NCBI GenBank assembly: GCA_951406725.2 | Contig: OX597821.1 | Span: forward strand, 92,504,001 to 92,568,000 | Origin: Octopus vulgaris | Taxonomy: Eukaryota | DNA: 64,000 nucleotides | Reading direction: 5' to 3' | Shown here: piece after piece, positions 32,367 to 43,863 of the stretch | Position numbering within the stretch: position 1 is the first letter of the stretch | Layout: each line of letters opens with the position of its first letter | Translations under genes and position numbers: made by a program | Notes under the pieces: model-generated | The model's input: the letters and a program-made list of their open reading frames with translations, nothing else | The model's database searches: none | Told to the model about the DNA's origin: nothing

Positions 32367-32423
<57 letters not shown>

Positions 32424-32430
<7 letters not shown>

Positions 32431-33459
32431 TAAACAGTAAAAATAATTACAGACATGGACAAGAACATGAAACACCACAGAGACGACACAAGAACCACAG
32501 GACGGGACATTCGAAGCCCTCAGTCATTAGTCAAGAACCAGATCATCTTAGCAATTTCGGCTGATTAATCTTGAGATTGCTCCGATATGGGCAGCCCGCC
32601 AAGGGAAATCTAAGCCAAGCGCATTAGATCCCCTGGAAGAAAGCTTCGAATGTATACAACACGAGGACGGAAAACGAACGAAGTACACGAACAAAAATAC
32701 AGAATACGTGACACCAATAAGAATACAAAAACGTAAAAACAATAACGGTAAAAATAAAAAATAAACAACAAAACAAAACCAGGACGTAGGACAAGGGTCT
32801 TTCGACAGGACGAGTTGAGTATGGGGCTGGCTTATGAAGTTGTGCCTAATGGCCGCAGGGAGACGAACAAATACGTGTTGCTTCGGCGACTGCTGGAACG
32901 AAAAGAGCGCTCAACAGCGGCTAGCGGTCACGTGAGAACAAAAGACAGGAGAAAGGGACAGATGAAAAGAGAGAGAAGGTGGACGAGGGAGGAGAAGAAA
33001 GAGACAGATCGAGGGGGCTGGAGGTGAGAGAGATAGAGAAACGTAGAAGGGGGGGGGAAGACGGATGGAGAGGGAAAGAAAGGAAGGGGAATAAGGGAGG
33101 AGAGAGAGAGAGAGAAAGAGACAGATTAAGAGTCGTATCAATGCTAGAGAAAAAATATACTTATCGTATAAGGACAATTGTGGATACGTAGCCGCCGATT
33201 ATATAGGTAAACAGTAAAAATAATTACAGACATGGACAAGAACATGAAACACCACAGAGACGACACAAGAACCACAGGACGGGACATTCGAAGCCCTCAG
33301 TCATCAGTCAAGAACCAGATCATCTTAGCAATTTCGGCTGATTAATCTTGAGATTGCTCCGATATGGGCAGCCCGCCAAGGGAAATCTAAGCCAAGCGCA
33401 TTAGATCCCCTGGAAGAAAGCTTCGAATGTATACAACACGAGGACGGAAAACGAACGAA

Positions 33460-33462
<3 letters not shown>
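32424..33462 (-). mobile_element. Retrozyme-like non-coding element (family P1): ~260-bp direct repeats 777 bp apart, flanked by (TA)n
   Basis: 32424-32685 and 33201-33462 are nearly identical; no TG..CA ends and no coding capacity; each repeat holds the permuted hammerhead-like motif. Confidence 0.85.
33301..33373 (-). ncRNA. Candidate permuted/pseudoknotted hammerhead ribozyme (intact core)
   Basis: Minus strand: ggctg-c-ccatatc-gg-agcaaTC-tcaaga-ttaat-cagcc-GAAA-ttgct-aagat-gatctgg-t-tcttga-CTGATGA. Confidence 0.6.
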
Positions 33463-38372: not shown

Positions 38373-39644
38373 CAGGAGTTGGACAAAATACTGGAAATAC
38401 CTATCATCATAGCATCATGATATTGAAATATCTATAAAACCGTCAAAAGCTTGTTTATTTTTATGTTTTTTTTTTATCTATTATTAGTGTTGCTTAATAT
38501 GTTTTGCTAAAATTGCTCTCTCTTTTCAGATATCATCAGAAAAAGGTAATTAAGATAAATGAAGGCTCTGTCGGACTTTCAAACAGGTCAAATTGTTGGT
38601 GCTCGTATGGCAGGCGCTAGCGTAATGAAAACAAACGTAATGAACTGTTTGGTGTATCAAGAAGTACTGTCTCGAAAGTAATGACAGCCTTTGAGAAAGA
38701 GGGAAAAATCTCCTCATCGAAACAAAACTCCGGAAAAAAAACTTTCAGAAAGGAACTGTCGGAATAATACGCGAATTGTTCGAAAGGATCACAAAAGTAA
38801 AGCTCCAAAAATTACTGCAGGGCTTTATGACCATCTCGAGAACTCAGTTTCTACAAAAAAAATGTTCGCCGGGAACAGCACAAAACCGGATTTCACGAGA
38901 GGGCTGCAATCAGAAAACCACTACTTACAAAAACAAACGTTGCAAAGAGTTTAGAGTGGAATAAAAACCCACAGAATTGGTCCCTAGAGCAGTGGAAGAA
39001 TGTTATTTACTCGGACGAGTCATCCTTTAGTTTATTTCTTACTACCGGCTGAGTATACGCGTAGAGACACCCAAAAGAAGCATTTAACCCAGACTGCATT
39101 CTTCCAACTGTTAAACATGGAGGAGAATCTGTGATGATCTCGGGGGCTATATTTTGGAAGACCACTGGCCCAATGGTTTCCCTTCTTGGCAGAATTAATA
39201 GTCAAGACTATTTAAGCATTTTGTCTGATCAAATTCATCCCATGATTGCGGAACTGTTTCCGAAGGGAAACGCAGTCTTTCAGGATGATAATGCACCAAT
39301 TCACACAGCTAAAATTGTTACTGAATGGCACGAGGGACATTCTAGTGAAGTTGAACATTTTATCTGGCCACCACGGTCCCTAGATTTCAATATTATTGAA
39401 CATTTATGGTGTATTTTAGAAAAACAAGTAAGGAGTCGATATCCTTCACCATCATCACTACAAGAACTGGAGACTGTTTTAACTGATGAATGGAAAAACA
39501 TTCCTTTGGAAACAATTCAAACTTTGTACGAGTCCATATCTCGTAGAATTCAAGCTGTAATTACTTCTAAAGGCGGTCCTACCCCATATTAAAATAAATT
39601 TGTTTGAAATTTTAAGGTGTTTCCATTATTTTGTCCAACCCCTG
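38373..39644 (+). mobile_element. Near-full-length Tc1 transposon with DD36E spacing (Incomer-like); transposase 38559-39592 disrupted
   Basis: TA-flanked TIRs CAGGAGTTGGACAAAATACTGGAAATACCT / AGGTGTTTCCATTATTTTGTCCAACCCCTG; MKALSDFQTGQIVGARMAGAS, YSDESSF, FQDDNAPIH and DFNIIEHLW; 36 residues between the second D and E; frameshifts and stops present. Confidence 0.92.
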
Positions 39645-39751
39645 TATATATATATATATATACAAAGAGACAGAGAGACAGATAGAGATGGATGGATATA
39701 TATATATATACATACACACACACACACATGCATATACATATATATATATAT

Positions 39752-40029
<278 letters not shown>

Positions 40030-41784: not shown

Positions 41785-43863
41785 TCAGCACTCAATTACC
41801 AACATGGGTGAAAAAGATTGGTGCAAGTGTGAAGGTAGAACACCTAGAAAAATCAGCATTGCTTGGAACTGCAAGAATTCTTCACAGGGTTTTTGAAGCA
41901 CGACCAGTAAGCAAGTGTCACTTTAGTCTGCTGGCTCTCGACAGCTGACACTTTCCATCACACCCAGCAAAATAGCTGTGAGTGTTCATATAATAATAAT
42001 AATACTTTCTACTGGAATGTTATAATAAAGGAATGTTATAGGAGAGTTCGTGCAGTCCTGAAATCTGAACTAAATGCACGTAACAAGGTGTTAGCTATAA
42101 ATTCCTTAGCAGTTCCAGTTGTTACTTATAGCTACAATGTGTTGAACTGGAATATGAGTGAAGTAAAGAATATAGATAGGAAAATACGCAAGCTGCTGAG
42201 TTGTAATAGGATGCATCACCCAAAGGCAGACGTAGATCGCCTTTACCTTCCCAGAGCCCAAGGAGGTCGAGGCCTGATCCAATTTGAACTAGCTTACAAA
42301 ACAACCACAATTGGACTGGCCAAATATCTCGAAATATCGAATGACTGGATGCTAAAGCTCGTGGAAAATCACGAGAGACGAAAGAAGCTTCATTCTATCA
42401 TAAAGGAAAGCAAAACATTTGCTATTGATCTCGTGCAGGATACCCAAACTGAACAACCTGAGGGAAGTACGGCAACTATTGTTGCAAAGAAGGTGAAAAT
42501 GATGGCAATGAAAAAAGCGCACGAGCAATTGGCTGATAGGTGGGAGGAGAAACCTCTGCACGGCAAATATGTGACCCGCAGCAAACAAGCTGATGTTGAC
42601 CAGAAGCAAACCCATCAGTGGCTACGGAGCTCAGGGCTAAAAGCAGAGAGCGAAGGTTTCATCCTGGCTGCTCAAGATCAAAGCCTATTAACCCGTAACT
42701 ACCAGGCCAATGTGATGAAAAATGGAGCAGACCCAAAATGCCGATTCTGCAACGACATGATTGAAACAGTGGACCACCTAATCTCTGGATGTAAAGTCTT
42801 AGCACCAGTGGAGTATAAATTAAGACATGACAGAGTTGGCCAATATCTCCACTGGTTAATAAGTCGGCATTACAATATCAAAACTGCCGACAAGTGGTAT
42901 AATCACCACCCTGAGGCTGTAACTGAAGGAGAAAATGTAACCATTCTGTGGGACTTTCCAGTACATACAGACCGAACCATCAAGGCCAATAAACCAGATA
43001 TTGTTGTGAAAGACCAAAACAATAAAGTTTGCTTATTGATCGACATGAGCATCCCCTGTGATCATAATATCTCAGCGAAAGAGTTTGACAAGCTCAGAAA
43101 ATATAAATACCTACTCATTGAAATTGAGAAAATGTGGCATCTCAAGGCGGTTACAATACCAGTGATCGTAGGAACACTATGAATGATCAAGAAGGGAACC
43201 GAAAATTATATGAGAATGATCCCTGGCTTACCATCCCTGCAAGAAGTGCAAAAGATTGTCTTAACTGGTACATCACACGTATTGAGAAGAGCATTTAAAT
43301 GAACGAACTACTGAGTTTGGTTTAATGGCCTACCAATGTATACTATGAGTTTCTTTGCCCTATGAGTCGGGAAGACACTCGGCAAGAAATGGAAGCAAAT
43401 TTGAAAGAAGAAAAAAAAAGCAATAATAATAATAATAAATGGATTATACAATACCGTTAAAACAAATTGTTTAGAACCGCACATGTTTCATCCTTTCGGG
43501 GTCGACAAATTAAGTACCAGTGAAACAATGGGGTCGATACAATCAACTAGTCTCCTAGTGGGAAATACGAAGGTTGTGGTCAATGAAGAGAATTGACCTG
43601 ATACCAAGAGTAATTGACGCACTTAGAAGTATCAGCACTCAATTACCAACATGGGTGAAAAAGATTGGTGCAAGTGTGAAGGTAGAACACCTAGAAAAAT
43701 CAGCATTGCTTGGAACTGCAAGAATTCTTCACAGGGTTTTTGAAGCACGACCAGTAAGCAAGTGTCACTTTAGTCTGCTGGCTCTCGACAGCTGACACTT
43801 TCCATCACACCCAGCAAAATAGCTGTGAGTGTTCATATAATAATAATAATACTTTCTACTGGA
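41778..43863 (+). repeat. Identical 239-bp direct repeats (41778-42016 and 43625-43863), the 3' end of a second R4/Dong family
   Basis: Both translate ...SISTQLPTWVKKIGASVKVEHLEKSALLGTARILHRVFEA, then 3' UTR, TAA and ACTTTCTACTGGA. Confidence 0.9.
42018..43440 (+). mobile_element. Young 5'-truncated R4/Dong-clade non-LTR retrotransposon (RT C-terminus, CCHC knuckle, PD-(D/E)xK endonuclease)
   Basis: ORF 42088-43182 has RLYLPRAQGGRGL, CRFC..ETVDHLISGC, RHD and KPDIVV..LIDMSIP..K..KY; one premature TGA at 43180, frame continues to 43302; TAA tail. Confidence 0.93.

Follow-up and report, generated by a model that had tools for sequence, protein, structure and literature searches.

Does a motif on the minus strand of the Octopus vulgaris genome, in which every element of the hammerhead core can be found but is wired in an unfamiliar order, encode a working ribozyme, and what carries it? 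The motif occupies 33284..33430 of the window, by which we mean the 64,000-nt stretch analysed (contig OX597821.1, positions 92,504,001 to 92,568,000). A first-pass annotation had proposed a hammerhead with reversed order of the core blocks, a stem II completed by an upstream strand, and a distal helix replacing the usual contact between loops I and II. From sequence comparison we conclude, with a probability of about 0.84, that the motif is a working, cis-folding, non-circular hammerhead of a young non-autonomous Penelope-like element (PLE; a retrozyme) of Naiad-related design. The predicted ribozyme spans 147 nt.

A base-by-base check located all named strands at their minus-strand coordinates (Table 1). 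Read 5' to 3', the minus strand carries the outer stem, a hairpin, stem II, helix C, stem III with the AUC triplet, and stem I, and continues with a 5-nt linker, the 3' strand of stem II, GAAA, stem III, helix C, stem I, CUGAUGA, and the outer stem. The hammerhead core nucleotides (CUGANGA, GAAA, and NUH) are all present, stems I, II, and III abut the core, and the G10.1-C11.1 and A15.1-U16.1 pairs are in place; a third family has the same arrangement in different letters. The reversed block order, the upstream completion of stem II, and the distal helix are together supported by three lines of evidence, namely between-family covariation, an unrelated family with the same wiring, and a step in genomic 5' ends.

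Several details of the initial proposal were revised. The outer stem exists, with 15 bp including G-U pairs (33430-16 / 33298-84) rather than 11. Stem III pairs through GCAAU; its sixth, outermost pair (A33358-U33327) is unpaired in 12 of the 15 aligned copies, and a kink-turn accounts for these bases better. A 38-nt hairpin (33413-33376) absent from the annotation completes a four-way junction, and helix C pairs with one U·C mismatch in the window subfamily. It was the follow-up that brought out this junction and the kink-turn, as well as the retroelement context and the connection with Naiads.

Table 1. Features of the split-core hammerhead and its host insertion, in window coordinates.
Feature	Position	Strand	Basis
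Complete insertion between two (TA)n tracts; 5'-truncated; 1,040 nt, or 1.34 units of the non-coding 778-nt repeat	32423..33462	-	sequence
Second ribozyme copy within this insertion; presumably inactive, with a private G5A change at 32528 (CUAAUGA)	32507..32653	-	sequence
Outer stem, 5' strand; 15 bp with G-U	33416..33430	-	pair probabilities 0.72-1.0; 89% of cells paired; 2 pairs changed on both sides
Hairpin closing the A9|G10.1 gap with the outer stem as a four-way junction	33376..33413	-	constrained flank fold; zero-linker junction in families 2 and 3 (family 3 by eye)
Stem II, 5' strand GGCTG (A), from upstream; G10.1 = 33373	33369..33373	-	sequence, alignment
Helix C, 5' strand CCATATC (I-II interaction helix; kink-turn NC helix)	33361..33367	-	terminal pair C-G / U-A / U-G across subfamilies
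Kink-turn, non-bulged strand: G3n 33360, G2n 33359, A1n 33358	33358..33360	-	consensus from PMC5061560
Stem III, 5' strand GCAAU, and C17	33352..33357	-	sequence; predicted AUC cut 33352/33351; step in genomic 5' ends
AGCAATC as named in the first-pass annotation	33358-52	-	sequence
Stem I, 3'-product strand TCAAGA (D)	33346..33351	-	two compensatory pairs (A-U>G-C, A-U>U-A)
Linker, 5 nt	33345-41	-	between stem I and the 3' strand of stem II
Stem II, 3' strand CAGCC (A')	33336..33340	-	sequence, alignment
G12-A13-A14-A15.1 (GAAA 33335-32) and stem III, 3' strand (TTGCT)	33328..33335	-	sequence
Kink-turn, bulged strand: 3-nt bulge 33327-25, G1b 33324, A2b 33323, U3b 33322	33322..33327	-	L1/L3 vary; 1b/2b/3b in 43/43 of families 1/2; recurs in family 3
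Helix C, 3' strand GATCTGG (C')	33315..33321	-	sequence, alignment
Stem I, 5' strand TCTTGA (D', 33313-08), and CUGAUGA (33307-01)	33301..33313	-	N7 any letter (A20, G14, T8, C1 of 43)
Outer stem, 3' strand	33284..33298	-	sequence, pair probabilities, alignment
Family 2 copy, 5'-truncated; starts immediately ahead of GAAA, a few nucleotides past the cut	39750..39908	-	3' end approximate

On its own, the heptamer CTGATGA occurs at about chance frequency in the window (12 observed versus 10.2 expected). The full split descriptor matched once in the window, at the motif itself, and once in 150 first-order Markov resamplings of the window with both strands searched. A scan of the window against Rfam at gathering thresholds gave no match, and a repeat search over the whole window was dominated by microsatellites. 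The nested minimum-free-energy fold of the region differs from the ribozyme fold, with helix pair probabilities of 0.24 (II), 0.19 (III), 0.09 (I), and 0.0 (C); we gave nested folding little weight either way because a nested model cannot represent a pseudoknot. Matches to a loop-nucleotide pattern at 48 loci in metagenome contigs were considered as relatives and rejected, as they act like chance matches: stem I occurred in 0 of the 33 that were re-parsed, versus 24 of 27 in the octopus genome.

The block order, S-G-C, is none of those of types I, II, and III (CGS, GSC, and SCG). Eckert et al. 2023 (PMC10085705) have already reported and validated non-circularly permuted hammerheads of types SGC, CSG, and GCS, and the reversed order is therefore not new. 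The split form is cyclically equivalent to these types and shares their reversed cyclic order, the short I'-II' linker, the helix joining strands of stems I and II, and all core nucleotides. Where it departs from the published types is the CUGAnGA/stem II junction. The passages of that paper used here assume at most 1-2 inserted nucleotides between CUGAnGA and stem II and do not contain such a break, whereas the stem II strand lies upstream in all three of our families; since the assumed contiguity of block C fails, the split form falls outside the six types. Unlike in SGC/CSG, block C is broken at A9|G10.1 with the gap closed by a four-way junction, and stem III and the I-II helix are connected by both strands, via a kink-turn. 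The split form also occurs in thousands of copies in an animal genome, whereas SGC and CSG came from metatranscriptome sequences near hairpin ribozymes. Judged on its sequence, the split-core form is a non-circular pseudoknotted hammerhead whose core is opened between A9 and G10.1. The six-permutation scheme takes the three blocks as unbreakable, and a natural form that breaks one would change the inventory of hammerhead topologies.

An ordinary type-SGC hammerhead would draw stem II from the bases that follow CUGAUGA and leave the upstream GGCUG incidental. Family 1, that of the window motif, offers some material for such a contiguous block C, as the CUGA that follows the core might pair with the UCAG ahead of CC-GAAA, with GGCU another 5 nt along. 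These bases are not kept, however: family 2 has AAGAAA and family 3 UGGAGG at this place, and both stretches pair within the outer stem. In every one of the three families the upstream strand complements II', and a general descriptor finds no contiguous stem II in family 3. We consider an ordinary SGC fold exceedingly improbable and retain the split core.

Among retroelement ribozymes, metazoan non-LTR retrozymes (PMC7229834; Li et al. 2026, bioRxiv 10.64898/2026.07.22.740005) are likewise non-coding and arranged head-to-tail with one hammerhead per unit, and are presumed to be mobilised by PLEs via circles. Their hammerheads are type I and their units span ~150-450 bp, whereas the window unit has 778 nt, is dispersed, and carries a non-circular split core; the parts of Li et al. 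on retrozymes and PLEs that we drew on contain type I motifs only. The minimal PLE hammerheads of Cervera and de la Peña 2014 (PMC4209133) have no stable helix III, and show a one-nucleotide bulge as against two whole helices here. Our search of the literature, which covered few subscription papers and the supplement of Eckert et al. as text only, turned up no account of the split form and none of permuted hammerheads in Naiads; the figures and alignments of that supplement may bear on novelty. Neither was there one in the consulted parts of PMC3088659, PMC10162972, PMC13725137, and bioRxiv 10.64898/2026.09.16.752053.

The pairings are established by comparison among three families, and the three-dimensional fold is a prediction from them. 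A diverged fragment at window 39908-39813 led to family 2; the copy there adjoins a 175-aa frame (39065-39592, plus strand) that resembles a fragment of a Tc1/mariner transposase. Fifteen copies chosen from families 1 and 2 were aligned. In this alignment 91.2% of the cells are paired and 15 cells carry a two-sided change; none of 500 shuffles reached either value, and slid controls stayed at or below 47% paired, although related sequences can beat shuffles and within-family conservation largely reflects descent. Compensatory pairs within these families number two in stem I, one in helix C, and two in the outer stem, and family 2 covaries in stem I and the I-II helix. The covariation across copies that the first-pass annotation had proposed as a check was found in stem I, helix C, and the outer stem, and stems II and III show no two-sided change in the 15 copies. 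For these two stems, covariation is seen only when family 3 and the published Naiads, whose sequences do not align with families 1 and 2, are compared by hand.

Family 3 (570 pattern matches versus 7 in the control) has stems I, II, III, and C in different letters, in the same order and with the same kink-turn. This comparison is stronger support for the predicted fold than the alignment of families 1 and 2. In families 2 and 3, the outer stem begins directly after A9 and the hairpin stops directly before G10.1 (by eye in family 3), and family 1 has a few slack bases at this point. Since the outer stem and hairpin abut A9 and G10.1, the break would be closed by a four-way junction. A further subfamily, at C1:154910854 and C3:83517535, has an AUA triplet and changes in stem III that keep pairing via G-U. 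An old, decayed fourth family (L126:4480-4570; 6 genome matches) retains the core, the outer stem, and the hairpin around an interior that resisted parsing.

Where stem III meets helix C, the sequence conforms to the standard kink-turn as defined by Huang and Lilley 2016 (PMC5061560), with a 3-nt bulge followed by G33324·A33358, A33323·G33359, and U33322·G33360, leading from a canonical to a non-canonical helix. Bulge positions L1 and L3 vary across 43 copies of families 1 and 2, whereas 1b, 2b, and 3b are invariant; these families also have the C·G pair at -1b,-1n and the G at 3n. The pattern recurs with unrelated stems in 28 copies of family 3. No kink-turn inside any hammerhead came to light in the literature searched. 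Eckert et al. 2023 (PMC10085705), in the part used here, left the connection from stem III to the I-II helix geometrically unexplained, and a kink-turn suggests a way to tie the two together. Its presumably kinked geometry would supply the sharp bend that a monomer fold needs.

No such bend would be needed if the same pairings formed between two RNA molecules, in a domain-swapped dimer where the loop of each arm pairs with its partner's base strands. Dimeric action is common among the hammerheads of PLEs and amphibians (PMC4209133, PMC7229834), and Eckert et al. 2023 (PMC10085705) note that, in the crystal structure, stem III and the I-II helix have distal ends that lie far from each other. 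Yet a consensus kink-turn sits exactly at the joint in two unrelated families, and non-octopus Naiads, read by eye, have asymmetric loops or junctions there with no clear kink-turn; both features are needless in a dimer. Naiads also carry a single copy near the 3' end. These points make the dimer improbable, and favour folding in cis. In the octopus lineage, the built-in kink-turn might further make folding, and with it cutting, depend on a host L7Ae-family protein (15.5K/Snu13) that gates cut templates versus circles; this idea, taken together with the wider Naiad architecture, we regard as rather doubtful.

The ribozyme resides in a 778-nt repeat without coding capacity (no stop-free stretch longer than 95 aa). 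In the 2.8-Gb genome, all 40 scored matches among 2,488 candidates were identical over 176 nt, and the core pattern occurred 3,841 times versus 0 in a reversed control. Copies share a common 3' end followed by (TA)n, have variable 5' ends, and vary in length from well under one unit up to 2.16 units; the insertions in 18 extended regions around pattern matches are mostly short 3' remnants. A fixed 3' end with (TA)n and variable 5' ends is the pattern described for PLEs (PMC8557442). Together with the partial tandems, the microsatellite targets, one ribozyme per unit, and the lack of coding capacity, these features mark the repeat as a probable non-autonomous PLE derivative or retrozyme. Units of one insertion share subfamily alleles in 5 of 10 multi-unit insertions, and one allele is private (L020); this sharing fits rolling-circle copying and also a homogeneous tandem master. 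In L073/L074 and L081/L082, two copies lie inverted relative to each other at a distance of some hundred bases, an arrangement described for PLE insertions. The window also contains, at 41911-43182 on the plus strand, a 423-aa frame resembling the C-terminal region of non-LTR retrotransposons that carry a restriction-like endonuclease.

Hammerhead cleavage uses G12 as general base and G8 as general acid, and leaves 2',3'-cyclic phosphate and 5'-OH ends. A reverse transcriptase copying a template cut at the AUC would reach its end there, and insertions from such templates therefore cannot start upstream of the cut. We examined genomic 5' ends, leaving out copies L001-L030, which had been selected to span the cut. 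Distinct 5' ends abutting (AT)n within 30 nt of GAAA lay at +1 to +16 in 25 of 27 cases, and upstream in 2. Genome-wide, 692 ends fell in +1 to +15; among 100 of them that were listed, 17 were exactly at +1 and 43 at an ATC microhomology at +10. An upstream window of equal size returned 247 rows, and a hand tally of 100 listed rows gave 29 truly upstream ends and 5 on the ATC boundary; the other 66 were downstream starts that carried additional bases, ~26 of them at +1. By extrapolation, ~72-84 upstream ends stand against at least 692 downstream, an approximately tenfold step at the predicted cut. Extrapolating likewise from listed rows, the same ATC microhomology served for ~300 ends at +10 versus ~12 at -3.

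This step appears to be fossil evidence of in vivo cleavage at the predicted site, and the pile-up would be rare evidence that a PLE ribozyme acts on the reverse-transcribed template. An internal transcription start at the same base may be an alternative source of the step. Such a start, or a stall of the reverse transcriptase, belongs to a reading in which the structure is real and serves as a replication or packaging signal without cutting. In keeping with that reading, most cDNAs pass the site, as the abundance of intact-pattern matches indicates; the largest single pile of ends is at the +10 microhomology rather than at +1; and family 3, where the cut coincides with a TA microhomology, has 10 downstream and 5 upstream ends (n=15). 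However, cDNAs that pass the site are also expected from a cleaving element, because circles or uncut multimers can serve as templates. The catalytic nucleotides are kept while N7 is free, the step sits on the very nucleotide predicted by hammerhead geometry, and a stall should find no helix left at +1 once the downstream strands have been copied. A non-cutting signal accordingly seems hardly likely to us, and self-cleavage is the preferred reading. Two deep contigs from the X3 run end near the cut; being contigs only, given without strand, end, or level, they were not counted as evidence.

In the mechanism that we propose, the long arm formed by helix C, the kink-turn, and stem III would bend back onto its own base strands, so placing its terminal loop (I', II', and GAAA) to pair with the upstream stem II strand and with the downstream stem I strand and CUGAUGA. 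The outer stem and the hairpin stacked on it would hold the A9 and G10.1 ends together as a four-way junction. A transcript longer than one unit, cut twice at the AUC, would yield the 778-nt monomer, and part of the monomers might be ligated into circles, as proposed for PLEs and retrozymes (PMC4209133, PMC7229834). At (TA)n targets, a PLE reverse transcriptase/endonuclease acting in trans would then prime at a point ~152 nt downstream of the cut. Linear templates that have been cut would produce copies whose 5' end is at or just past the cut, and circles or uncut multimers would produce the partial tandems.

The Naiads are a PLE group for which Craig et al. 2021 (PMC8557442), in the parts considered here, report no canonical hammerheads, alongside 'HHR_core' and 'half_core' flags that are left unexplained. 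Their File S5 gives 54 Naiad 3' ends, of which we read 39 by eye (~500-650 nt each), assigning consensus names by the order of entries in File S1. In 7 of the 39 we recognised the split form complete with its outer stem and hairpin (Bfor, 3_Chem, Amil, 2_Movir, Plae, Ovul, and Obim), which belong to a ctenophore, a hydrozoan, a coral, a cubozoan, an acanthocephalan, and two octopuses, and hence to Ctenophora, Cnidaria, Rotifera (Acanthocephala), and Mollusca. An intact type CSG with a I-II interaction helix was seen by eye in another 6 (Hcon, Hpol, 1/2/3_Nbra, and Smim, the last with one extra U between A9 and G10.1). By the same reading, type CSG is partly visible in Parc, three ends (Lpol, Ppla, and Ptep) are SGC-like but irregular, and 22 of the 39 showed no recognisable hammerhead in the displayed ~500-650 nt.

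The split ribozyme thus appears to be the ribozyme that Naiads were reported to lack. We think it likely that Naiads across at least four animal phyla carry a hammerhead architecture that had gone unrecognised, in which A9|G10.1 is a fourth point of opening and a four-way junction closes the gap. Naiads had been thought to thrive without hammerheads, a stated puzzle to which the complete non-circular hammerheads seen by eye in 13 of 39 consensi may be an answer; their supposed absence had served the argument that hammerheads may be mere passengers of PLEs. Type CSG would, in addition, go from two published sequences to a feature of nematode and spider retroelements.

The window element shares with Naiads (Craig et al. 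2021, PMC8557442) the (TA)n targets, the 5' truncation, and the partial tandems; the Naiad motif lies in sense orientation to the ORF near the 3' end, and 7 consensi contain the same split ribozyme. An autonomous Naiad encodes an ORF with an N-terminal GIY-YIG domain and a C-terminal reverse transcriptase (RT). Unlike the Naiads of PMC8557442, the window element has no ORF, and outside the ribozyme architecture no homology to Naiad DNA was detected: in BLAST comparisons of family 1 and 2 units with Naiad and other PLE loci, the only similarity was to embedded copies of the units themselves. Family 3 closely matches the published octopus Naiad 3' ends and lies in sense, downstream of the Naiad RT, at 8 of the 30 best-scoring RT loci and at 4 of 20 with weaker scores. 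A decayed Naiad copy (L172) combines endonuclease, RT, and ribozyme, with family 3 at its end; RVT_1 in L186 and GIY-YIG in L171 both scored below the Pfam cut-off. No intact Naiad ORF was found among 139 RT matches (150 of 245 candidates scored); all the Naiad RT matches examined are decayed, the longest open frame being 292 aa.

A search with GIY-YIG led instead to PLEs with a C-terminal endonuclease, 16 of 150 rows having a 781-aa open frame. The locus L173:3245-5587 (C16) contains an intact 781-aa PLE ORF of a kind present in many copies, with the RT followed by a C-terminal GIY-YIG, a 359-aa frame upstream, and a 3' end beside (TA)n; its flanks contain no CUGANGA, and it has no similarity to the 778-nt unit. 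As family 1 is young, its mobiliser would be either an unseen young Naiad or such an intact 781-aa PLE, and we regard the C-terminal-endonuclease PLE as a candidate trans partner.

Some features of other Naiad 3' ends are also of note. The arthropod Naiads Lpol, Ppla, Ptep, 1_Dst, and 3_Dst tentatively have CCCC-CUGACGA-like cores in common; Ppla looks SGC-like with a long insert, and Ptep seems to have two separate helices in place of stem II. Among Naiads with no visible hammerhead, two other conserved, structured-looking 3' motifs occur, one in CGi, Olur, and 1_Pfla (oysters and a hemichordate) and one in Scon and Mmer (clams), and both are candidates for other self-cleaving RNAs.
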